The notes beneath the pieces were generated by a model. The model was not told the origin of the DNA and searched no databases. It saw only the letters and a list, made by a program, of their open reading frames with translations. Shown one piece after another: positions 3,848 through 51,460 of a stretch of DNA of 51,460 nt. Made by a program: the position numbers and the translations under genes. The stretch covers positions 1 to 51,460 of the forward strand of contig CAZBGE010000004.1 of NCBI GenBank assembly GCA_964491435.1, read 5' to 3'. Every line of letters starts with the position of its first letter. Position 1 is the stretch's first letter. Source of the stretch: an uncultured Smithella sp. (lineage in GTDB: Bacteria; Desulfobacterota; Syntrophia; Syntrophales; Smithellaceae).

Positions 3848-5233
3848 TTAGGTTCTGATTTTTAAGTTTACTTGCAGATATTTTTTGAATGCTTCAAAAT
3901 CCTTGGACATTTTGATGGCGCCGCCTTCCCGGCGGGCCAGATCTTTCATGCTCTCCGGCGGCTCTGGGTCAATTCCCAGAAGATTCTTGATTTCATCCGG
4001 GAATTTGGCCGGGTGGGCGGTTTCCAGGCAAATAGCCAGCTTATCGTCGCCGGTTTTCTGAAAATACGCTTCCAGTCCCTTCCATCCCACAGCGCCGTGC
4101 TGTTCCAGTATGACACGGTAACGCTCGTAAACGCTCTTAATGGTTTGGCGGGTTTGTTCGTCGGTGACGCTGATGGAGAAAATGCGGCGGCGCATTTCCT
4201 CAAGATCGGGATAGCGATAGACATGGCCCGCGCGATCCACGGAACCGCCGTATAATTCAAAGAAACGCGCCAGATTGCTGGGATGTCCGACATTCATGGC
4301 GTTGGAAATGCAGGCCCGCGAGGGCGACACCTTCCGGTATTGGCCTGTCTCCAGAAAGACCGGAAATTCGTCATTTTCGTTGGTGGGCATGATCAGTTTG
4401 GACACCGGCAATCCCATCCGGCGGGCGTATTCGCAGCCCAGGGCGTCGCCGAAATTTCCGGAGGGGACGGAAACCACCACTTCCTCGCCGGCTCCCGCCA
4501 GTTGGGCATAGGCGTAAATATAATAAACAATCTGAGGCAAAATGCGGCCGAAATTAATGGAATTGGCCGAAGACAAATTAAAATGGGCCAAATCGGCGTC
4601 GGCGAAGGCTTCTTTGACCAGGTTCTGGCAGTCGTCGAATTTGCCATCCACGCACATGGCCTGAACGTTGCCACCAATGGTGTCGAGTTGCTTCTTCTGC
4701 ATCAGGCTCACTTCACCCGCAGGATACAAAATGGTCACATCAATGCCCGCAACGCCTTTATAAGCTTCTCCCACAGCGCTTCCTGTGTCGCCGGATGTCG
4801 CCACCAGGATATTGAGCCTTTCTCCCTCAGGCCGGCAGTAGCTCATGAGCCTCGCCATCATCCGGGCGGCAAAATCCTTAAAGGACGCGGTTGGCCCCTG
4901 ATCCAGGCGTAAAATAAACGCATGCGGGTAAACAGCCTCCAGCGGCACAGGGTAGTTATAAGCGTCCCTGACAATGGCTTCGAGAATATCTACTGGAAAT
5001 TCTCCGGAAAGAAAGGATTTGGCGACAAGCAGCGCGGCCTGCCAGTAGGGTTTGTCCCGAAGCGCCATCATATCATTCATGGAAAGCTGCGGAATGATAT
5101 CGGGAACAAACAAACCTTCGTCCGGCGCCTGTCCTTTAAGGAGCGCTTCCTTAAAAGACACGTTTCCGGTAAAAGGTGTAATTCCCGCAATATTATTTAC
5201 ATGACGATTCGTACTGTAATATCTGATGGCCAT
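3848..5233 (-). CDS. thrC: Threonine synthase
   Basis: GPTASFKDF PLP-Lys motif, ATSGDTG, PSGNFG, ETAHPAKF; start moved to MAIRYYST at 5233. Confidence 0.93.
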   Translation of the reverse strand: MAIRYYSTNRHVNNIAGITPFTGNVSFKEALLKGQAPDEGLFVPDIIPQLSMNDMMALRDKPYWQAALLVAKSFLSGEFPVDILEAIVRDAYNYPVPLEAVYPHAFILRLDQGPTASFKDFAARMMARLMSYCRPEGERLNILVATSGDTGSAVGEAYKGVAGIDVTILYPAGEVSLMQKKQLDTIGGNVQAMCVDGKFDDCQNLVKEAFADADLAHFNLSSANSINFGRILPQIVYYIYAYAQLAGAGEEVVVSVPSGNFGDALGCEYARRMGLPVSKLIMPTNENDEFPVFLETGQYRKVSPSRACISNAMNVGHPSNLARFFELYGGSVDRAGHVYRYPDLEEMRRRIFSISVTDEQTRQTIKSVYERYRVILEQHGAVGWKGLEAYFQKTGDDKLAICLETAHPAKFPDEIKNLLGIDPEPPESMKDLARREGGAIKMSKDFEAFKKYLQVNLKIRT

Positions 5234-38906: not shown

Positions 38907-41591
38907 GTGAAAAATAAAAACCTTGTCAGCATACCGGTCGTTCCCGCGGATGATCTACAGCAGGCGTTGCGCATCCGCCGTTTTTTAATGGCGTTTTCAG
39001 CTTACGTTATTTGCGGTATTTTATGTTATTTCGCCTTTCTTGCCGGCTTCGTCACCTCGGAAGCCTTTTTTGGATGGCTGACCGCCGCCATCTGTATAAA
39101 CGTAGTCCTGTACGGATTTTTCCGCTCGGGATTGAATCTGAAAATGGCCGATCCAAGTCTGACGGTAATACAGATGTGCACCGCCATCATCATGGTCATG
39201 TATGTCATGTCGTATGCCAATGAGTTACGCGGCGTCCTGTTGCTGATTTACGTCATTATTCTCCTCTTCGGCATCTTCCGCCTCAATACAAGGGGCTTTT
39301 TATATGTCAGTATCTTCACCCTGGTGACTTATGGAGGGGTCATCGCTCAACTTCATTTCTTCCGGCCCCGGGGCGTCAATTTTCATATGGAATTTCTGCA
39401 ATGGGTTGTACTGGCGGGCGTCCTGGCCCTTTTTTCCATCATCGGCGGACATATTTCCGGCCTCAGGGTCATGATTTCCAGAGACCGTTCCACCATCAAA
39501 CGCCTGACCGATAATATTCATGATGTCATTTTCGTCATGGATATGAATATGAAATATACTTACGTGAGTCCCTCTGTGAAATCTCTGAGGGGATACGAGC
39601 CGGAAGAGGTGATAATTCAGGATCCCCTTGATGCGCTGACTCCTTCCTCCCGGGAACTGGCCATGAAAAATTTAGCCGAAGTTCTGGAACTGGAAAAAAC
39701 AGAACATCAGGAAGACATATCCCGGACACTTCAATTGGAAATCAAACGAAACGACGGGACCACCGTGTGGACGGAAACGAAGTTTACCTTTATCCGGGAT
39801 AAAAATAATCAGCCGGTGAATATTCTTGGCGCAATGCGTGATATTACCGAACGTAAACAGGCGGAATCACAAAAAGAGGCCGCGCTCGAAGTCATACGCC
39901 AGGGTGAGGAAAAATACCGCAACATCCTCGAAAGCATTCAGGAAGGCTATTTTGAAGTTGACCTTGCCGGCAACTTCACCTTTGTCAATGATTCCATGTC
40001 CCGGCTCACCGGATGCTCCAAAGAGGAATTAATCGGCATGAATCATAAACAGTTTACAAGCCCGGAAACCGCAAAAGAAGTTTTTCATGCCTTTAATAAC
40101 GTTTACAAAACAGGGGTGCCTTCCAAAGCGTTCGATTGGCGGATTATCAGAAAAGACGGCGCTGAAGGATTCATTGAAACATCCATCATGCTACAGAGAA
40201 ATTCATCAGGCAAGCCGACAGGATTCAAGGGAATGATCCGCGACATTACCGAACGCAAGCGGATCGAGCAGCAACTGAACTATATGGCGACACACGACGC
40301 CTTAACCGGACTGCCCAACCGCCTGATGTTCAACCAGTTGTTAAATCAGGCCATACGGTCCGCGCTGCGTCACAAACGTCAGTTAGCCGTTTTCTTTATT
40401 GATCTGGATCGTTTCAAGATTATCAACGATACACTGGGGCACGAAGCGGGAGATCGGTTGTTGAAGGAGATCGCCAGACGGTTTAGAAGCGCATTGCGCT
40501 CGGTTGATGTTGTCGGGCGTCTGGGCGGAGACGAATTCGTTGTCCTGATCGAGGAAGTGGATGATTTGAATCAAGTGGCCATTGTCGCCCATAAGATACT
40601 TTCCAACGCCATAAAACCGATGGTTCTCATGGGTGAAGAATGCCGTGTAACCGCCAGCATCGGCATCAGCATATATCCCAAGGATGGGCAGGACGAACAA
40701 TCCTTGATGAAGAATGCGGATATCGCCATGTATTTTGCGAAAGAAGAGGGCAAGAACAACTTCCAGTTCTACTCCAAGGATATTCAGTCGCAATCCACCG
40801 AACGCCTGGGGATAGAAACAAATCTGCGCCTTGCATTGGAGCGCAAGGAATTTTCCCTGCACTACCAAGCCAGGGTTGATTTCAGAACCGGCATGATTAC
40901 AGGCGTGGAGGCCCTTCTACGCTGGCAAAGTCCGTCTCTTGGTTCAGTCACCCCCACGCAATTCATCCCGATCGCCGAAACAACAGGGTTGATCGTGCCT
41001 ATCGGCCGGTGGGTGATGAAAACAGCGTGCGCCCAGAATATGGACTGGCAAAGCCAGGGACTTCCTCCCGTCTGTATATCGGTCAATTTATCGCTTCGCC
41101 AACTCATGGACGACAGGTTCCTGGAAGACATCAAATCCGCACTGGAGGATTCCGGAATGGCGCCGCATCTTCTGGAATTGGAAATCACGGAAAGTATGGT
41201 CATGCATAATCCCGCGCATCTGATTGCGGTGCTGCACAGCATCAAGAAACTGGGCGTGCGGCTTGCCATCGATGATTTCGGCACAGGATACTCTTCTCTC
41301 GCCCAGCTAAAAAACTTTCCGGTGGACACCCTCAAGGTGGACAGATCCTTTATCCGCAATCTGCCTCAAGACTCCGAGGACAAAGCGATTACCGAGGCGA
41401 TCATCGCCATGGGCAGAATCCTTAGCCTCACAGTTGTCGCTGAAGGGGTGGAAACACAGGCGCAGGAGGATTTTTTACGTAATCACATCTGTGATGAAAT
41501 GCAGGGTTTTTATTTCAGTAAGCCCATCGAACCGGATCAATTTGGCGAACTCCTGCGCAAGCATAACCTCCTTTCCCAACAATCCGCCTGA
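38907..41591 (+). CDS. Membrane-anchored PAS-PAS-GGDEF-EAL protein
   Basis: N-terminal TM bundle, two PAS/PAC (RDITERK), intact GGDEF, EALLR, DDFGTGYSS. Confidence 0.92.
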   Translation: MKNKNLVSIPVVPADDLQQALRIRRFLMAFSAYVICGILCYFAFLAGFVTSEAFFGWLTAAICINVVLYGFFRSGLNLKMADPSLTVIQMCTAIIMVMYVMSYANELRGVLLLIYVIILLFGIFRLNTRGFLYVSIFTLVTYGGVIAQLHFFRPRGVNFHMEFLQWVVLAGVLALFSIIGGHISGLRVMISRDRSTIKRLTDNIHDVIFVMDMNMKYTYVSPSVKSLRGYEPEEVIIQDPLDALTPSSRELAMKNLAEVLELEKTEHQEDISRTLQLEIKRNDGTTVWTETKFTFIRDKNNQPVNILGAMRDITERKQAESQKEAALEVIRQGEEKYRNILESIQEGYFEVDLAGNFTFVNDSMSRLTGCSKEELIGMNHKQFTSPETAKEVFHAFNNVYKTGVPSKAFDWRIIRKDGAEGFIETSIMLQRNSSGKPTGFKGMIRDITERKRIEQQLNYMATHDALTGLPNRLMFNQLLNQAIRSALRHKRQLAVFFIDLDRFKIINDTLGHEAGDRLLKEIARRFRSALRSVDVVGRLGGDEFVVLIEEVDDLNQVAIVAHKILSNAIKPMVLMGEECRVTASIGISIYPKDGQDEQSLMKNADIAMYFAKEEGKNNFQFYSKDIQSQSTERLGIETNLRLALERKEFSLHYQARVDFRTGMITGVEALLRWQSPSLGSVTPTQFIPIAETTGLIVPIGRWVMKTACAQNMDWQSQGLPPVCISVNLSLRQLMDDRFLEDIKSALEDSGMAPHLLELEITESMVMHNPAHLIAVLHSIKKLGVRLAIDDFGTGYSSLAQLKNFPVDTLKVDRSFIRNLPQDSEDKAITEAIIAMGRILSLTVVAEGVETQAQEDFLRNHICDEMQGFYFSKPIEPDQFGELLRKHNLLSQQSA

Positions 41592-41680: not shown

Positions 41681-43540
41681 TCACGCTGTTGTATGGAAAG
41701 GGATGGTAATTCTATATACGCCTCCGGATAAAACCGTCTGCACCGGGTAGAGCGATTTTTCGTAAACTTTCAACATGGCCCGGTTGTTTTCCAGAACATC
41801 GGCCTTCAATCCGGCAATGCCTTCTTCCCGGGCGGACCGGATCAAGAGGTTGAAAAGATAGGTTGAAATGCCCCTGCCCTGATACTGCTCATCCACAATG
41901 AATGCTGTGTCGGCGAAGGAATCGCCGCGGGATTTGACATAGCGGGCCTCGCCGATAATTTTCTCCACGCCGGATTCTTCAATGATCGCCACAATGGACA
42001 TGGTGTAGCGGTAATCCACGTTGACATATTCCTGCATTTTTTTATGGGGCATGGTTTTGATCGGGCTGAAGTAGCGATAATAGACCGCCTGATCGGAAAA
42101 CCGGTAAAACAAACGGCGCATTTCTTCTTCATCGGACGGCTTGATGGCCCGGAAACGGACCGTCAGATTTTCCTTAAATTTATGCGAGCAGGCGATTTTC
42201 TCCGGATAGAGATGACCGGAGCCGGCAAAATAAATCTGGTCGGCGTAAATCATCTTTTCTTCCTTGGCCTGCCGGACCAGATCGGCGCGGTCATCGGGAT
42301 GCGCAATTTCAATGAGCGCCTGCGCCCGTTCCCGGAGCGTCCTGCCCATCAGATAGGCCACGCCGTATTCCGTCACGACAACGTCCATGGATTCACGATT
42401 GGTAAACTGGAAAGGATACTTATCCAGAGAGAGCAGAATATTGGATTCTCCCCTGCGGTTGCGGCTGGGCAGGGCAAAAACGTTGCGGCCGTTTCTGGAA
42501 AGCGTCGCCCCCCAGAAAAGCTCCTGCACATTGCCGGGACCGGCGGTAACATTTCCCTTTCCGGAGTGCAGGGCGATGTTGCCGGTCAAATCCACTTTCC
42601 GCGCCGGGAAAATGGCTACCATATTGTCGTTGAGTCCGATGGTGCGGGGATCCATCACGATATCCTGGGGCTGGAATTCCACAAGCGCATTTAAATCCAG
42701 CCAGTTCATCAACTCTTTGGTTCCGATAATATAGGAGGCGCAGGTCTTGCCGCGAAAAACGCCTTTATAGCGGTTGGTCACAGCCCCGCTTTTGATGAGA
42801 TCCATCAAAGCATCGGTAAAGAAAGGGGAATGCACGCCCAGATTTTTTTTTGTGGACAGGACTTTGGCCAACGCCTCATAAAGCGGCCCGATGCCATAGG
42901 AAATACAACTGCCGTCCGGAATGACCGACGCCACGTTCGCGGCAATTTTCAGATAAAGCTCCTGCAGCGGCCAACGGCCCACATAATAAGGCGGCTCGGT
43001 CGCCTCGACCAGATAGTTAAAATCATCCATGTTCACCATGGTGTCGCCCATAGTCCGGGGGATCTGGGCGCTGATTTCGCCGACAACGATTTTAGCCATT
43101 TCCATGGCTTGCCGCTCCACGGAAGCACCCACCAGATAAGCATAACCGTTTTCATCGGGAGGGGTCACCTGAATGAAGGCCACATCAATATTTATGGCGC
43201 CGGTTTTAAAAAGCCAGGCCACGCGCGAGAAGCGGCTGGGAATCAAATCCACTCTCCCCTGACTGATGGCATCGGAGGCCAGCCATCCGGAAAAAAATGT
43301 CTTTAAACGGAATTTTCGGGCATACCGCTCATCAATGGCCACTGCATCGCCAAGGCTGACCAGTTGGATCAACTCCAGATCCTGCAGGTTGAACTGAGTG
43401 GATTCCATCAGGTGCTTGACCAGCGTCCGGGGCTCGGCCATACCCGTCCCCAGAAAAATACTCATGCCCGGATCAATTTTCGACAAGGCTTCCTCGGGCG
43501 CTACGATTTTTTGCTTCCACATATCGGCGCTCTCATTCAA
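41681..43540 (-). CDS. Acetyl-CoA hydrolase/transferase-fold protein fused to a C-terminal GNAT
   Basis: Family I CoA-transferase-like body (VVTEYGVAYL.G.TLRERAQALIEIAHPDDR); GNAT with YYRYFS and QYQGRGIS. Confidence 0.85.
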   Translation of the reverse strand: MNESADMWKQKIVAPEEALSKIDPGMSIFLGTGMAEPRTLVKHLMESTQFNLQDLELIQLVSLGDAVAIDERYARKFRLKTFFSGWLASDAISQGRVDLIPSRFSRVAWLFKTGAINIDVAFIQVTPPDENGYAYLVGASVERQAMEMAKIVVGEISAQIPRTMGDTMVNMDDFNYLVEATEPPYYVGRWPLQELYLKIAANVASVIPDGSCISYGIGPLYEALAKVLSTKKNLGVHSPFFTDALMDLIKSGAVTNRYKGVFRGKTCASYIIGTKELMNWLDLNALVEFQPQDIVMDPRTIGLNDNMVAIFPARKVDLTGNIALHSGKGNVTAGPGNVQELFWGATLSRNGRNVFALPSRNRRGESNILLSLDKYPFQFTNRESMDVVVTEYGVAYLMGRTLRERAQALIEIAHPDDRADLVRQAKEEKMIYADQIYFAGSGHLYPEKIACSHKFKENLTVRFRAIKPSDEEEMRRLFYRFSDQAVYYRYFSPIKTMPHKKMQEYVNVDYRYTMSIVAIIEESGVEKIIGEARYVKSRGDSFADTAFIVDEQYQGRGISTYLFNLLIRSAREEGIAGLKADVLENNRAMLKVYEKSLYPVQTVLSGGVYRITIPFHTTA

Positions 43541-44726
43541 ACATTTCTTTATCCCGCCGGTACCAGTAATCGGGGATAATGCGATACATCAATCGGGAGA
43601 AAGGTCCGATGTATTCATTTTTTCTTTTATCAAACTGGCAGGCGTGAATAATCATGTCCTTAATCGCGTCTTTATGGCCGCCCTTGTTAAAGATATTATA
43701 GGCGCAGGAAAAAAGCGGGCTGTACATATTTTTCTTTTCCAGATACTTATAGACATTGCGAATCGTGTTGGGCCCTTCCGGAGTGCCGTCGATTCTTCCC
43801 AGCACCTTCAGATTGGTTTCAATCGGATTGCCGGTATAGAGATCATAGAAATACTTTCCGTAGCGGTAATTCTTGCTGGCCAGGGAAGAAACGGTTACAT
43901 ACATGTCGCCAACGCCGGCCTGCGAGTGAAAAGCCTGAAAACCGCCTCCCAGCAGACGGGTGAGCGACCGGATTTCCACGCCGGAACGGGCAAAGATGGT
44001 GCCGGGGATCGAATCACCCAGATCCAGCGAATCCGTCAATCCCTTGATATTGGCCACAATATTTTTCAGCGCGCCGCAGGCTTCCACCCCGATTTTGTCA
44101 AAATTATAATAAGCATTGAGCTCTTTGCGGTTGAATATCAGCAAATGATCACGAATAATATTGGCCGTGCGCCGGTTCCCGGCGACAGTTACGCAAACCG
44201 GTTTACCCAGAGCAATATCTATATCAAAAAAGGGCCCGCCGATACAGGCGACCTGACACTTCTGCTCCAGATTATACAAATGGTTATGAATAAGTTGTGA
44301 AGGAGTAATCAACTCGCTGGTTTTTTCGTCGGCGATCAACCCCTTGATGGGCGAAATCAGGCAGGTATCCCCCGCTTTTTTATCAATGATCGGTTTGAGA
44401 TAATTGAGCAATTCCGGCAGACGATTCATGGTGACGGCCAGAATAATAAAGTCATTGTTCTCGACAATATGTTCAAGATCATTGGTCGCATAAACCTTCG
44501 GCGATAAACGAGGAACCAGATCCATGCCGCCCAGACATTTGGCCAGATCCTCCGTCAAATGAATGGGATTCAGATGGTCACGGTTAATGGCCTTGCAGAC
44601 ATCCGAGTTGTGGTAATAAATAGCAATGCGCTTGTTATCGCGTCCCAGCTTGTAGGCAAACGACGTGCCCAGACGCCCCGGTCCGATAATGGCGACTCTT
44701 GTCGTATCTAAATTGGAAACAATCAT
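43533..44726 (-). CDS. Divergent NAD(P)H-dependent glycerol-3-phosphate dehydrogenase-like protein
   Basis: IIGPGRLG Rossmann motif, PIKG, GALKN catalytic Lys, GVGDMYVT. Confidence 0.7.
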   Translation of the reverse strand: MIVSNLDTTRVAIIGPGRLGTSFAYKLGRDNKRIAIYYHNSDVCKAINRDHLNPIHLTEDLAKCLGGMDLVPRLSPKVYATNDLEHIVENNDFIILAVTMNRLPELLNYLKPIIDKKAGDTCLISPIKGLIADEKTSELITPSQLIHNHLYNLEQKCQVACIGGPFFDIDIALGKPVCVTVAGNRRTANIIRDHLLIFNRKELNAYYNFDKIGVEACGALKNIVANIKGLTDSLDLGDSIPGTIFARSGVEIRSLTRLLGGGFQAFHSQAGVGDMYVTVSSLASKNYRYGKYFYDLYTGNPIETNLKVLGRIDGTPEGPNTIRNVYKYLEKKNMYSPLFSCAYNIFNKGGHKDAIKDMIIHACQFDKRKNEYIGPFSRLMYRIIPDYWYRRDKEMFE

Positions 44727-45581: not shown

Positions 45582-46457
45582 ATGATTAACACCATCCTCA
45601 TGCCGGTTGACGGATCGGCCAACAGTTTCACCGCAGTTGATTACGGCGCCTATCTTGCGCCAAAACTTGAGGCCTCCCTGACAGGATTGCACGTCATTGA
45701 CGTCAATCTCCTTCAAGGGCCGATGATGACGGATATGTCCGCCACCGCCGAAATGCCATCCTGTGACGTTTTTTTCGAAGAGATTGAAACATCTCTGCAG
45801 GAAAAAGCTGATGACATATTGAAAAATTTTAGAGATCGATGCAAAACGGCAGGCGTTTCCTGTCTTGCCAAAAAAAATATCGGCGCCATCAAATCCGCCA
45901 TCATTGAAGAAGCCGAAACGTCTGATTTAGTTGTCATGGCAAAAAATGGGAAGCGCTTTCATCTCAAAGAAGGCGGCATGATCGGCTCAGTCACCGAAGT
46001 TGTGATTCGCCGTTCAGGAAAGCCAGTTATGGTTATTCCCGAATCCTTTCAAAAAATTAAAAGCATAGGAATGGCTTACGACGGCAGCGCTTCCGCCAGA
46101 GAAGCGTTACAACTGACGCTGAATGTTTCCAAGCAGACCAAATGGCCGGTGACCGTCGTGATCATCAGCGCGGATACAGCCAAAGCGGCGGATTTATCGG
46201 CACAGGTCAAGTCCATCGCCCAAGAAGGCCTGGCGGGCTGCGAAGTTATCATTTCATCAGGCAAGGAAGCAGATGAAATCCTCAAATTCATCAGGGCGGG
46301 TTCGATAGAACTGATGGCCATGGGGGCATACGGCCACAACCGTCTGCGTGAACTGATCCTGGGCAGCACAACCTCCCAAATCATCCAGAAAAGCCCCATT
46401 CCCATATTACTGGTCCGTGACCCTTTTAAAATCCGGAAACGCAGCGTCAAACGGTGA
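45582..46457 (+). CDS. Universal stress protein (two USP domains)
   Basis: ILMPVDGS; MGAYGHNRLRELILGSTT. Confidence 0.9.
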   Translation: MINTILMPVDGSANSFTAVDYGAYLAPKLEASLTGLHVIDVNLLQGPMMTDMSATAEMPSCDVFFEEIETSLQEKADDILKNFRDRCKTAGVSCLAKKNIGAIKSAIIEEAETSDLVVMAKNGKRFHLKEGGMIGSVTEVVIRRSGKPVMVIPESFQKIKSIGMAYDGSASAREALQLTLNVSKQTKWPVTVVIISADTAKAADLSAQVKSIAQEGLAGCEVIISSGKEADEILKFIRAGSIELMAMGAYGHNRLRELILGSTTSQIIQKSPIPILLVRDPFKIRKRSVKR

Positions 46458-46573
46458 TTGCTGAATTTCTGCGCGCATCCCGGACAAAAGGCTATGGTTA
46501 ACGCAAGGTGTTTGCCAACGTGTTGCGATGAAAAATGGAAATAAGTCCGCCTGAGCAAAAGGAGAAAATCATC

Positions 46574-47410
46574 ATGTTCAAAAACATTCTTGTTCCAGTT
46601 GACGGATCGGCCAACAGCGCCACCGCAGTCAATTACGGCATTTATATCGCGCCAAAATTCGAGGCATCCCTGACGGGGCTCCACGTCATCGACATATTTC
46701 TCATTCAGGGACCGGTAACGACGGACATTTCCGCCGCCGGAATGCCGCCCTGTGACGGTTTTTTTGAAGTCGTCGAAGCATCTTTGGAAGAAAAAGCCGA
46801 TTTAATATTAAAAAACTTTCAGGAACGCTGCCAAACAGCCGGCGTTGCCTGCTCTGCCCAAAAAAGCATCGGTAAAATCAGCGACAACATCATTGAAGAA
46901 GCAGGAAACGCTGATTTGATTTTAATGGCGAAAAAAGGAGAGCATTTTCACTTAAAGGAAGGGGGGCTGCTCGGGTCGGTGGCTGAAGCCGTGATTCGCC
47001 ATTCAGGAAAACCAGTGATGGTCGTTCCGGAATCCTATTGCGAAATCGAAAGCATGGGACTGGCCTATGACGGCAGCGCCTCTGCAAAAAAAGCATTGGC
47101 TTTGTCTTTGAGCATCTCCGAACAGGCCAAATGGCCGATTACCGTTGTGATTGTCAGCGCGGATACGGCAAAAGCGGCGGCTTTATCGGAACAGGTCGAG
47201 GACATGGCCCAAAAAGGCTTGGCCGATTGCGAAATCATCATTTCGTCAGGCAAAGAAGCGGATGAAATCCTGAAGTTCATTCGTGAAGGTTCCGTAGAGT
47301 TGATGGTTATGGGCGCATACGGCCATAACCGTCTGCGCGAATTGATCCTGGGCAGCACAACCTCCCACATCATTCAGAAAAGCCCGGTTCCGGTGCTTCT
47401 GATCCGTTGA
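46574..47410 (+). CDS. Universal stress protein (two USP domains), tandem paralog
   Basis: MFKNILVPVDGS; MGAYGHNRLRELILGSTT; start moved to 46574 (GGAG RBS). Confidence 0.9.
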   Translation: MFKNILVPVDGSANSATAVNYGIYIAPKFEASLTGLHVIDIFLIQGPVTTDISAAGMPPCDGFFEVVEASLEEKADLILKNFQERCQTAGVACSAQKSIGKISDNIIEEAGNADLILMAKKGEHFHLKEGGLLGSVAEAVIRHSGKPVMVVPESYCEIESMGLAYDGSASAKKALALSLSISEQAKWPITVVIVSADTAKAAALSEQVEDMAQKGLADCEIIISSGKEADEILKFIREGSVELMVMGAYGHNRLRELILGSTTSHIIQKSPVPVLLIR

Positions 47411-47507: not shown

Positions 47508-48860
47508 CTACCCTTTTTTCTCCGTAGCCTTTTTCTGCCGCCGCCAGCCCTCCACTCTCTCTTTGATCGTTTTTTCAAAGCCGGCATCCGCCGGGTGGTA
47601 CAGGGTTTTTCCCTGAAGTTTTTCCGGCAGGTATTCCTGCGCCACAAAGGCATCCGCAAAATCGTGCGCGTATTTGTAGTCCTTACCGTAAGCCAGTTCC
47701 TTCATCAGTTTGGTCGGAGCGTTGCGGATATGCAGGGGAACAGGCAGATAGCCGGTTTTATTGATTAATTCTTTGGTTTGGCCATAGCCGGCATACAGGG
47801 AATTGCTCTTCGGCGCCGTGGCCAGATAAACGGCCGCCTGGGCGATGGCCAGCTCTCCCTCCGGCAGTCCGAGAAAATGAAAAGCCTGCTGCGCGGCCAT
47901 GGTCAGCGTCAGGGCATGGGGATCGGCATTGCCGACATCTTCGGAGGCAAAACGGATCATCCGGCGTAAGATATATAGCGGGTCTTCCCCGGCAATCAGC
48001 ATGCGTCCCAGCCAGTAAAGAGTTGCGTCGGGGTCGCTGCCGCGCATGCTTTTATGAAACGCCGAAATCAGATTGTAATGTTCTTCGCCGTCCTTGTCAT
48101 ACAGGAGAGCCTTTTTCAGCAGGGCTTCCTCGGCCGATTTTGCGGTGATGACTCTTTCTTCCGCGGGCAGTGACTGAACCATAGAGACAACTGCCTCCAG
48201 GTTGTTCAGAGCCGTCCGCGCATCGCCGCCGGAAAGGAGGACAACATAACGGAGTGCTTCATCATCAACTTTAACGGCCAGCTTTCCCAACCCCAGATGT
48301 TGATCGGTCAGAGCGCGCTTCAGGATGGTTATCAAATCTTCTTCGGTAAATTGCTTGAGCAGCAACACACGGGTGCGTGACAGCAGCGGAGCGATAACTT
48401 CAAAAGAAGGGTTTTCCGTCGTCGCGCCAATCAAAGTGATGAGACCGCTTTCCACATGCGGCAGAAATGCATCCTGCTGGGCCTTGTTGAAGCGATGGAT
48501 TTCATCGACAAAAAGAATGGTTTTCTGCTTTTTGGCTTCCCAGAGGTCTTTCGCGTCGTCAATGACCGAGCGGATTTCCTTCACGCCGGAAAGGACGGCG
48601 GAAAAACTGACAAAGGTCGTTTTGGTTTCGTTGGCCAGAATGCGGGCGAGCGTTGTTTTGCCTGAGCCGGGCGGCCCCCAGAAAATCATCGAGAAAATCC
48701 TGTCTTCCGCAATGGCGCGCCGCAGCAACGTTCCTTCGCCAACCAGGTGCGGCTGGCCGATGTAATCGGCAAGTTTTCGCGGCCTCATTCTTTCAGCCAG
48801 CGGGGCGGCATCCAGAGCATCTTCCGCTGTTCCCACGCTGAATAAATCCAGGTTCTTCAT
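47508..48860 (-). CDS. rarA: Replication-associated recombination protein A
   Basis: PLAERMRP, WGPPGSGKT, DEIHRFNKAQQD, ISAFHKSMRGSDPDA. Confidence 0.93.
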   Translation of the reverse strand: MKNLDLFSVGTAEDALDAAPLAERMRPRKLADYIGQPHLVGEGTLLRRAIAEDRIFSMIFWGPPGSGKTTLARILANETKTTFVSFSAVLSGVKEIRSVIDDAKDLWEAKKQKTILFVDEIHRFNKAQQDAFLPHVESGLITLIGATTENPSFEVIAPLLSRTRVLLLKQFTEEDLITILKRALTDQHLGLGKLAVKVDDEALRYVVLLSGGDARTALNNLEAVVSMVQSLPAEERVITAKSAEEALLKKALLYDKDGEEHYNLISAFHKSMRGSDPDATLYWLGRMLIAGEDPLYILRRMIRFASEDVGNADPHALTLTMAAQQAFHFLGLPEGELAIAQAAVYLATAPKSNSLYAGYGQTKELINKTGYLPVPLHIRNAPTKLMKELAYGKDYKYAHDFADAFVAQEYLPEKLQGKTLYHPADAGFEKTIKERVEGWRRQKKATEKKG

Positions 48861-49114
48861 CTTTGCCTCTTCGCCCTTTCAATGATTTCCATTAAACTGG
48901 TCACCTTATCTTTCGGTTGCACGCCAGCGAAACATGCCCATTGGTCAGGTGTCATTTGCTCCCTCAGCACGGCCGCAACATCAAAAGCCGCCTGCCAGCA
49001 GGCCATAATGCGCGCGCAGGGCAGGTCACCCGCCTCACGCAGACAGTAGGCAAAGGTCATTTCATCGCCCAGTTTCGGGCAGCGGGTTAATTTGGAGTCG
49101 TGTTCCGTTTTCAT
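48857..49114 (-). CDS. Small Cys-containing hypothetical protein (85 aa)
   Basis: RCPKLG...YC...PC...CW; stop overlaps the rarA start. Confidence 0.65.
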   Translation of the reverse strand: MKTEHDSKLTRCPKLGDEMTFAYCLREAGDLPCARIMACWQAAFDVAAVLREQMTPDQWACFAGVQPKDKVTSLMEIIERAKRQR

Positions 49115-49197
49115 TGCGCCTCAGCTTGTCGAAAAAAAGAAAAGCCGTCAAGAAATTTGTTTTCCCGGCGGCTTTCCATGTTACCAAAATAAATCAC

Positions 49198-50559
49198 TTA
49201 AGGTTTGGGGAAATCCTTAATGGCGTTGAGCGCCCGGTCAATTTCATGATCCGGCAATTCGTAAGCTTCCAGCTTGCCCGCGAAGTAAGCGTCATAGGCG
49301 GCCAGATCCACCAGACCGTGTCCGCTCCAGTTAAAGAGGATAATCTTTTCCTTGCCTTCTTCCCTGGCGCGCATTGCTTCATCCACCACGGCGGCCAGCA
49401 CATGATTGGTCTCCGGCGCGGGAATAAAGCCTTCGGAACGCGCCCATTTGACGCCTGCATCAAAGGTCTTCAGCTGATCGTAGGCGCGCGGTTCGATGAA
49501 CTTTTCCCGGACCAGATGGCTGACAATGGGGGCCATGCCGTGGTAGCGCAGCCCGCCTGCATGAATCGGCGCAGGAATATAGTCATGTCCCAGCGTGTAC
49601 ATGGGGAGCAGAGGGGTGCTTTTCGCCAGATCGCCGAAGTCGTAGGCAAACGGTCCTTTGGTCATGCTGGGGCAGGACGTGGGTTCCGCGCCGACGACTT
49701 TTACCTCTTTGCCGTGGATTTTGTCGCAGACAAACGGCGTGGCGATGCCGGCGAAATTGCTGCCGCCGCCGCAGCAGCCCATCACGACATCGGGATAGAG
49801 ACCGAGCTTTTGCATCTGTTTTTGCGCTTCCAGACCAATGATGGATTGATAAAGGATGACATGATTCAACACACTGCCCAGTGAGTATTTTGTATCCTTG
49901 CTGGTGACGGCATCTTCGATGGCTTCGCTGATGGCGATGCCCAGGGAACCGGGCGAGTCGGGATGCTCGGCCAGAACGTTGCGGCCGGCCTGGGTCAGGT
50001 TGCTGGGGCTGGGAATGCATTCAGCGCCCCAGGTGTTCATCATCATGCGGCGGTAGGGTTTTTGTTCATAACTGACCTTGACCATATAAACACGGCACAC
50101 CAGATCAAACATCTTGCAGGCCATGGACAGAGCCGATCCCCATTGCCCCGCTCCGGTTTCCGTGGTGATGCGTTTGGTTCCGGCGACTTTGTTATAATAG
50201 GCCATGGGAACGGCGGCATTGGGCTTGTGCGAACCGGCGGGGCTGACGCCTTCGTTTTTGTAATATATCTGCACCGGGCAGCCGAGCAGTTTCTCAAAAT
50301 TGCGTGCGCGGTAAAGAGGAGAAGGACGCCACAGCAGATACTTCTGGAGCACTTCATCCGGGATGTCAATCCAGCGTTGAGTGGAAACTTCCTGTTCGAT
50401 GATATTCATCGGGAAAATGGCGGCCAGATCGTTGGCCGTAACCGGCTGGCCGGTGCCGGGATGCAGCGGCGGTTTCAGCGGGGTGGGCAAATCCGCCATA
50501 ATGTTGTACCATTGCCTTGGTATTTCGTGATCTTCCAATAATGTTTTCACCTGTTCCAT
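49198..50559 (-). CDS. trpB2: TrpB2-type tryptophan synthase beta-like PLP enzyme
   Basis: [42 protein letters not shown]. Confidence 0.92.
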
Positions 50560-50627
50560 ATACGCTCTCCTTTAATCAAAAATTGCATTGCCATCAGATG
50601 ACAGAACCTTGCTTGCAAATTTCCGGC

Positions 50628-50666
50628 AAAAAAAATGCCATGGGGTTTTCCTTCCCATGGCATTTT
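50628..50666 (-). terminator. Attenuator terminator upstream of trpB2
   Basis: Minus strand AAAATGCCATGGG...CCCATGGCATTTTTTTT. Confidence 0.85.
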
Positions 50667-50726
50667 GAAACATTTGCGAGTCATGGGAAGAATCTTCCCT
50701 GCCCATGCTCAAGAACTTATACGAGC

Positions 50727-50786
50727 TTAAGGGCAGACATTTTTCGTCTGCCACCGCCAGTTTTTTTGTGAAATGCTGAATCGCAT
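50727..50786 (-). CDS. trpL: Trp leader peptide MRFSISQKNWRWQTKNVCP
   Basis: 19-codon ORF with TGG-CGG-TGG; GGAAAGG before the ATG; TTGACA upstream (plus 50844-50849); overlapping alternative hairpins. Confidence 0.8.
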   Translation of the reverse strand: MRFSISQKNWRWQTKNVCP

Positions 50787-50958
50787 GCCTTTCCAACCGC
50801 TTTCATCAAACTGGCAGTCGAACTAACATGACCGGGAAAGCCTTGTCAAGACGATTTTCAGAAAAGGACAAGGTAAATTTTTTCTTTCTTCAGTTCCATC
50901 ATCCGCACCCTACCCGATTGAGGCGCAGCGCGTGGTAATTGAGGAAACAGTAATCTTC

Positions 50959-51090
50959 GTAGCACGTAGCTTTAGCTGCGCCGAAATGCGGCGGAACTGA
51001 AGGTCCGGACTACATCAGCGGGGCTGAACACCCTTCGAGTCACTCAAGCCTCTCACTACATTTTTACGTAGTGCGTGCCTTCAGGCGCGC
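50959..51090. repeat. GTAG-type REP cluster (4 units), same family as 16148-16234
   Basis: 50959-50981 forward, 50991-51013 inverted, 51018-51059 inverted and interrupted, 51068-51090 forward. Confidence 0.75.
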
Positions 51091-51405
51091 AAACGATCCA
51101 TAAGCTTGTACGCATAATAGCTAATTAATTTATAGCCTTATCAACATTTCGAGCGCCCGGCGCCTTCTCTCTGCATACTGCTGATGTTCGGCCGAGTCCA
51201 AAAAACTCGACCGAACTGGGGAAAAACGAACGGAATAAAACGACAAAGAATATGAAAAAAAAGTATTGATGATTCTTTGCGGAAAGAATACGTGACTCAC
51301 CAACCCACCATCTTCAAACCGCCGAATAAAACGCATTTCCAAGTCGCCGCTGACAGTTCATTGTTAGGCCATAGAAAATTAACGAAAATAATGATAAGAT
51401 AATTT

Positions 51406-51460
51406 ATGAATTTTGAATGGGACCCTAAAAAATCGGATACCAATATCAAAAAGCATGGCA
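51406..51460 (+). CDS. BrnT-family toxin, 5' part (runs off the window)
   Basis: MNFEWDPKKSDTNIKKHG matches the typical BrnT N-terminus. Confidence 0.75.
   Translation, partial: MNFEWDPKKSDTNIKKHG

Follow-up and report, generated by a model that had tools for sequence, protein, structure and literature searches.

The trpB2 locus

The window (the whole stretch of DNA analysed here, 51,460 nucleotides from a contig of an uncultured Smithella sp.) carries on its minus strand a gene for a TrpB-like, PLP-dependent enzyme, preceded by a leader that contains a promoter-like site, a small open reading frame and a series of complementary segments (Table 1). The product is further matched by TIGR01415 (637.8 bits, cutoff 518.85) and by PF00291, whereas the TrpB1 model TIGR00263, at 147 bits, stays below its cutoff (392). 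The best solved relatives of the product are the Sulfolobus TrpB2 chains 6hul_B, 4qys_B and 6hte_B (407-431 bits), while TrpB1 chains score no more than about 125 bits, and the gene is referred to here as trpB2.

Table 1. Coordinates of the trpB2 gene, its leader and the leader's switch segments in the window
Feature	Position	Strand	Sequence	Basis or remark
-35-like box	50844..50849	minus	TTGACA	read directly from sequence
Candidate extended -10	50820..50828	minus	TGTTAGTTC	17-18 nt downstream of TTGACA; from aligned upstream regions
Leader peptide ORF, 19 codons + TAA	50727..50786 (ATG 50786; TAA 50729-50727)	minus	MRFSISQKNWRWQTKNVCP	sequence
Regulatory codons Trp10, Arg11, Trp12	50751..50759 (Trp codons 50759-50757, 50753-50751)	minus	TGG-CGG-TGG	sequence
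Segment A	50746..50752	minus	GGCAGAC	begins within last Trp codon; partner is the 5' part of B
Segment B	50723..50738	minus	GTCTGCC..GCTC, GTCTGCCCTTAAGCTC	leader TAA (50729-50727) in its internal loop
Segment C	50710-50694 (fuller extent 50694..50711)	minus	GAGC..GGGCAGGGAAG (fuller extent TGAGCATGGGCAGGGAAG)	partner is B or D
Segment D	50690-50682 (fuller extent 50677..50690)	minus	CTTCCCATG (fuller extent CTTCCCATGACTCG)	partner is C (anti-antiterminator) or E (antiterminator)
Segment E	50659-50651 (fuller extent 50651..50666)	minus	CATGGGAAG (fuller extent AAAATGCCATGGGAAG)	terminator 5' arm or partner of D
Segment F	50644-50632 (with U8 tract 50628..50644)	minus	CCCATGGCATTTT (with U8 tract CCCATGGCAT)	partner is E
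U tract	50635-50628	minus	T8	sequence
trpB2 Shine-Dalgarno	50567..50573	minus	AAAGGAG	7 nt before ATG at 50559
trpB2, TrpB-like PLP-dependent enzyme, 453 aa	49198..50559	minus		NF009057, 724.9 bits (cutoff 366)
Intrinsic terminator after trpB2	49132..49174	minus	AAAGCCG...CGGCTTT + T-rich tail	sequence

Since trpB2 is followed by an intrinsic terminator of its own, it is monocistronic. No trp gene is found in the last 13 kb of the window, nor in the 3 kb upstream of trpB2 in a relative (L004), a stretch that encodes MeaB and a glyoxalase-family protein, and the description of this gene in the earlier note as stand-alone is therefore correct; it also has a promoter-like site of its own. Downstream of trpB2 lie an 85-aa Cys-rich ORF (48857-49114, minus), without a Pfam or NCBIfam match, and then rarA, the start of which is overlapped by the stop of that ORF; at the corresponding position L004 bears a 110-aa ORF (4372-4704).

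Other features were observed in the window. A 12-bp hairpin, GTTCGGTCGAGT...ACTCGGCCGAAC, with no U tract on either strand, is located at 51186-51216 (minus) in a 600-nt stretch without an ORF longer than 70 aa, and its match to MicF is at chance level. Two tandem paralogous genes at 45582-46457 and 46535-47410 (plus) each encode a protein of 291 aa with two universal-stress-protein (Usp) domains, and an 894-aa PAS-PAS-GGDEF-EAL signalling protein, unrelated to the leader discussed below, is encoded at 38907-41591 (plus).

Anatomy of the leader

On the minus strand between 50849 and 50628, the W-R-W leader peptide and the U8 terminator that the earlier note had placed 5' of trpB2 were both confirmed, as was the presence of each of its proposed pairing segments A to F. 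The window copy of the leader peptide has only two Trp codons, with an Arg codon between them, and the leader element occurs once in the window. Segments E and F form an intrinsic terminator with a 13-bp stem and a 9-nt loop followed by the U8 tract, 68 nt 5' of trpB2; a simple terminator scan did not call it only because its loop exceeds the scan range of 3-8 nt.

The promoter-like site is conserved as well. TTGACA is present at a similar distance, 82-97 nt 5' of the first Trp codon, in 63 of the 66 relatives whose upstream DNA extends far enough, and in the aligned upstream regions the counterpart of TGTTAGTTC is TGTTAGG or TGTTACG at equal spacing. As an extended -10, TGTTAGTTC would be a weak match to TATAAT, and the consensus scan called no promoter at 50820-50849 because of this poor -10. 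Given that poor match, the conserved TGTTAG/TGTTAC motif could alternatively be a site for a regulator.

The minimum free energy (MFE) fold of 50830-50620 consists of A:B, C:D and E:F at -77.2 kcal/mol, with a z-score of -5.2 against 200 dinucleotide shuffles, none of which folds as well. Taken individually, the A:B hairpin is predicted at -11.0 kcal/mol, B:C at -17.2, D:E at -14.3 and E:F at -19.1 kcal/mol. A candidate seventh segment, ACTGCCAGTTT (50809-50819, minus), which could pair with AAACTGGCGGT over the Trp codons (50751-50762, minus), was rejected as specific to the window. This pairing is predicted at -13.1 kcal/mol in the window, compared to -6.2 for shuffles, and pairing of the same type has an advantage of more than 2 kcal/mol over shuffles in just 14 of the 63 scorable sequences; the complementarity of ACTGCCAGTTT and AAACTGGCGGT is probably due to chance, as it is not conserved in relatives.

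Conservation among the Syntrophales

Related trpB2 loci were collected by scanning one genome per species, and 80 loci with 77-96% protein identity were fetched. All belong to Smithella, Smithellaceae or other Syntrophales, and include one metagenome-assembled genome (L077) assigned to Syntrophus aciditrophicus, which carries the leader. A leader homologue is found at 71 of the 78 loci with upstream DNA (nhmmer E 1e-30 to 6e-7). Each of these 71 leaders has an in-frame start (67 ATG, 3 GTG and 1 TTG) and encodes a peptide, 14-23 aa long, with a run of Trp codons, namely WWW in 61, WWWW in 7 and WRW, as in the window, in 3, so that the run is retained throughout and varies in length by whole TGG codons only. 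In 56 of the leaders the stop codon falls within B, 24 nt beyond the last Trp codon (range 9-33 nt). TGG...GGTGG is invariant in the alignment of the 71 leaders and TGGTGGTGG is found in most relatives, while the N-terminus of the peptide is free to vary.

These features bear on the question of whether the ORF is translated or is incidental to an RNA switch that binds a protein or a ligand (TRAP-like, T-box-like or a riboswitch), with the TGG run conserved as RNA only. The 3' half of the ORF (WQxxxVCP) is indeed conserved mainly because it codes for the A and B helices, and about half of the copies show weak Shine-Dalgarno complementarity 5' of the leader ORF, 38 of 71 reaching -4 kcal/mol or better. 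However, the in-frame start and the stop inside B are kept in all 71 leaders despite the freely varying N-terminus, the Trp run changes by entire codons (the seven sequences with four included), and the geometry of the leader fits ribosome footprints. Moreover, the leader matches no Rfam family, T-box (RF00230) included, even at E up to 10, and no spaced array of GAG/UAG triplets of the TRAP type was seen on reading it by eye. An RNA switch of this kind is accordingly considered very unlikely, and the leader ORF is taken in what follows as one that a ribosome would read.

The helices are conserved as well. Across the 71 sequences, a terminated state composed of A:B, short C:D and E:F is 94.5% pairable, and a read-through state composed of B:C and D:E is 94.0% pairable, compared to 37-54% in controls in which the 3' partner was slid by 1-3 columns. 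The A:B helix is 99.4% pairable, with its loop-closing C-G changed to U-A in 9 sequences and to U-G in 12. The B:C helix is 93.8% pairable with two-sided changes at 4 pairs, including U-A to C-G in 7 sequences and C-G to A-U or G-U in 7. Two-sided changes are found at 4 of the 13 pairs of E:F, where U-A to A-U (13 sequences) and A-U to G-C (7 sequences) are frequent. The check for covariation among relatives that the earlier note had proposed thus yields compensatory changes in A:B, B:C and E:F, and neither the Trp codons nor the helices lack the conservation that attenuation would demand. The D:E helix is 94.2% pairable, and C, D and E are nearly invariant, as expected for segments that each fit two partners, so that the case for C:D and D:E comes from conservation and not from covariation.

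The association was also examined in reverse, by searching metagenome contigs for exact occurrences of the C/D core, TGGGCAGGGA-N5-CTTCCCATGA. The core was found at 96 sites, 5 of which are cut by contig ends, and trpB2 starts 103-736 nt after the start of the motif in 91 of the 91 sites with enough downstream DNA (at more than 300 nt in 5 of them). As every testable copy precedes trpB2, the element is dedicated to this gene. That the hairpins and short ORF might be a chance arrangement around an ordinary terminator and promoter region, with no regulatory role, could draw on the consensus scans having flagged neither at the leader, but such an arrangement is refuted by these comparative data. 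Homologous elements found at 71 sites in genomes and 96 in metagenomes, invariably 5' of trpB2, the pairability of both states at about 94% against the slid controls and the fold z-score given above leave a coincidence with practically no credibility.

Seven related Syntrophales trpB2 loci, among the 78 with upstream DNA, have no leader. At six of these (L053, L066-L068, L078 and L079), a glycerol-3-phosphate-dehydrogenase-like gene is located immediately 5' of trpB2, and the window has a member of this gene family at 43533-44726 (minus), 4.5 kb downstream of trpB2. The placement of this gene suggests that a rearrangement replaced or preceded the attenuator. One of these loci, L066, bears just before trpB2 (2927-2952) a fragment resembling the E/F terminator (..CCCATGGCTTTTTT; nhmmer E = 0.014), which suggests that this lineage lost the attenuator and did not lack it from the outset. 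The protein database matches listed all have at least 76% identity, and more distant loci were sampled from a plasmid and chromid collection. No Trp-rich leader was found at six distant stand-alone trpB2 loci, from Thermomicrobium, Nostoc, Parabacteroides, Prevotella, Treponema and Ruminococcus, and the leader looks like a lineage-specific invention.

Alternative folds and the position of the ribosome

The earlier note had described A to F as a chain of mutually exclusive helices. The five successive helices A:B, B:C, C:D, D:E and E:F are each at least 91% pairable over the 71 sequences, and in this respect the chain of alternatives stands; the exclusivity of C:D, by contrast, depends on the register in which it is drawn. 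The short C:D hairpin, GGGAAG/CTTCCC, overlaps B:C by a single base (50699) and coexists with it in predicted folds, so that this hairpin alone would relay nothing. A long register is also available, in which TGAGCATGGG.AGG (50711-50698) pairs with CTTCCCATG.CTCG (50690-50677) at -15.8 kcal/mol. With B masked, the predicted fold adopts the long register, which takes bases required by B:C and buries the whole of D. In these models it is the long register, and not the short hairpin, that is the effective anti-antiterminator, exclusive with both B:C and D:E. A choice between the registers by covariation was attempted and proved impossible, both being 96% pairable with essentially no compensatory change. 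The ability of D to pair with either neighbour follows from a CATGGG shared by C and E, to which its CCCATG is complementary.

The dependence of these folds on translation was modelled by removing the RNA behind the edge of a ribosome and folding each of the 71 leaders. The edge was placed 12 nt past the first base of the last Trp codon for a stalled ribosome (stall mask), and 12 nt past the stop codon for one that had completed the peptide (stop mask). Once E exists, D:E is part of the MFE fold in 69 of 71 leaders under the stall mask, compared to only 5 of 71 under the stop mask. The mean energy gained on adding E is -7.75 kcal/mol at stall versus -1.21 kcal/mol at stop, and the gain is greater at stall in 70 of the 71 sequences. 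Before E is made, 1.97 of the last 3 bases of D are on average unpaired at stall, compared to 0.31 of 3 at stop, and the exposed end of D at stall is, in these folds, a toehold for E.

The folding of the alternatives therefore agrees with what the earlier note had put forward, namely that stalling at Trp masks A and leads to B:C and D:E, while full translation masks B and leads to C:D and E:F, with D switching from C to E as predicted. The D:E helix shares CATGGGAAG with E:F, which makes antiterminator and terminator mutually exclusive, the dependence on ribosome position being a computational result. In the full-length RNA, the terminator is part of the MFE fold in both ribosome states, and the decision must consequently be a kinetic one, as in all such attenuators. 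The window copy is among the 5 of 71 leaders in which D:E is found under the stop mask, being slightly favoured (-3.3 kcal/mol) before F is made. Given this marginal D:E at stop, together with WRW in place of WWW, the window copy may be somewhat leakier or less sensitive.

A model for control of trpB2

The element is very probably a transcription attenuator of the ribosome-mediated, leader-peptide type, by which expression of the monocistronic trpB2 is adjusted to charged tRNA-Trp, as judged from comparative and folding evidence. Transcription would start at the conserved promoter-like site and give a leader of about 190 nt. With Trp plentiful, a ribosome would read the 19-codon leader as far as the stop codon inside B and thus cover B, whereupon the free C and D would join in the long helix and E would be left for F. 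The E:F helix and its U8 tract would then terminate transcription before trpB2 is reached. Were the leader not translated, A would pair with B, and termination would likewise be expected. When Trp-tRNA is scarce, a ribosome stalled at the Trp codons would cover A and permit B:C to form, in which case only the weak C:D hairpin of 5-6 bp could persist, with the 3' end of D exposed. On its synthesis, E would displace this weak hairpin to form the 9-bp D:E antiterminator, F would be deprived of its partner and RNA polymerase would read into trpB2. The TrpB2 so produced would relieve the starvation by forming Trp, with indole and either serine or phosphoserine as the most likely substrates. Translation of the ORF, the kinetics of the decision, the response to Trp and the substrate of the enzyme are the parts of this model that we infer.

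The same attenuation might be accompanied by an action in trans of the terminated leader RNA of about 190 nt, or of the leader peptide. The Sinorhizobium trpL offers a precedent, in that its rnTrpL and peTrpL reportedly act in trans, and C, D and E are conserved in sequence beyond what pairing alone needs. This strong conservation is, on the other hand, already explained by the two partners of each segment. An activity in trans, which would be a function added to attenuation and not an alternative to it, is considered improbable, albeit less so than an RNA switch with an incidental ORF, and attenuation in cis is the reading retained here.

Physiological significance

Ideas on the physiological role of stand-alone TrpB2 enzymes have mostly been drawn from kinetics in vitro and a single complementation experiment. 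A predicted switch that responds to Trp-tRNA and occurs before trpB2 only is an independent, in vivo-style sign of a cellular demand for this enzyme during Trp shortage. The presence of such a switch before trpB2 suggests that TrpB2 is made here under Trp shortage, and that it supplies Trp, as the earlier note held, is a reasonable inference from this regulation.

A broader reading may be offered tentatively. Smithellaceae and other Syntrophales would, on that account, have dedicated Trp-starvation control to a stand-alone, indole-salvaging TrpB2, the conversion of indole from the environment or from cross-feeding into Trp would be routine in these syntrophs, and TrpB2 might even be the principal, or the sole, enzyme by which they form Trp. 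This is a possibility that we consider doubtful at present; if true, the leader would be the first proof from natural regulation of what TrpB2_o, the class to which the enzyme probably belongs, does in the cell. Syntrophus aciditrophicus can be grown in culture; should its cultured strain SB bear the leader, as the metagenome-assembled genome assigned to this species does, the role of TrpB2 could be tested there directly.

Comparison with known systems

The closest parallel to the trpB2 leader is the leader of the his operon of Salmonella and E. coli (hisL; RF00514), with an identical A-F architecture and logic. In Salmonella, the his leader comprises six segments, of which A:B, C:D and E:F terminate transcription and are also the default without translation, while B:C and D:E give read-through upon stalling at the regulatory codons, a logic that has been shown experimentally (PMC4046918). 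The extended relay attenuator inferred in the earlier note has a precedent here, the six-segment logic of the Salmonella his leader being the same (PMC4046918). The mechanism is classical ribosome-mediated attenuation, and its six-segment design repeats that of the his leader and is not new. The two systems differ in that hisL senses His through 7 His codons and controls a whole biosynthetic operon in Gammaproteobacteria, whereas the trpB2 leader has Trp codons and controls one gene; they share no similarity in sequence or by covariance model. The sole match to the His_leader family (23.3 bits, compared to a gathering score of 49) is at 49229-49136, where it aligns only to the terminator hairpin of the model, and represents the terminator after trpB2 rather than the leader.

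The E. coli trpL (RF00513) is likewise ribosome-mediated, with Trp codons in a short leader ORF as its means of sensing Trp-tRNA. Its hairpin 1:2 corresponds to A:B of the trpB2 leader, an intrinsic terminator with a U tract lies at its end, and two Trp codons are enough for it, the same number as in the window. It differs in having four segments instead of six, in controlling trpEDCBA and in acting together with TrpR. No match to RF00513 (Trp_leader) was obtained at E up to 10 in 49000-51460, nor at gathering score anywhere in the window. Outside the Proteobacteria, leader-peptide attenuators with UGG codons have been predicted computationally in Actinobacteria, for the trp operons of Corynebacterium and Streptomyces and for trpS2 (PMC1262725). 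Like the trpB2 leader, these include targets other than trpE (PMC1262725), but they are unrelated in sequence and feature GC-rich triple motifs. The 'trpB2A' of C. diphtheriae denotes a second trpB beside trpA in an operon, and not a stand-alone gene of the TrpB2 family.

Within the part of the literature that is searchable, no Trp-sensing cis element of TrpB2_o genes was found described, and no Trp attenuator was found before a TrpB2-family gene or in the Syntrophales. A delta-proteobacterial regulon paper (PMC545781), considered as a possible prior report of a trpB2 attenuator, was set aside as it makes no mention of tryptophan. As far as this literature shows, what is new is a well-conserved family of cis-regulatory RNA in the Syntrophales, absent from Rfam, together with a new target gene for Trp attenuation.

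The product of the window's trpB2 belongs to the TrpB2 family and probably to its TrpB2_o class, that of enzymes encoded outside the operon in genomes with trpB1 and trpA in an operon as well. The class has members in Thermotoga maritima, Sulfolobus, Geobacter and Bacteroides and is typically encoded away from the trp operon (PMC1854888), as the gene is here. An earlier idea that TrpB2_o has another function was never substantiated (PMC1854888, PMC2700814, PMC11535334). The accepted activity of TrpB2_o is the formation of Trp from indole, for which it has high affinity, and the view of an indole scavenger prevails (PMC2700814, PMC11535334). As indirect evidence drawn from the sequences before these genes, the switch described here fits the view of TrpB2_o as an indole-scavenging Trp synthase and strengthens it.
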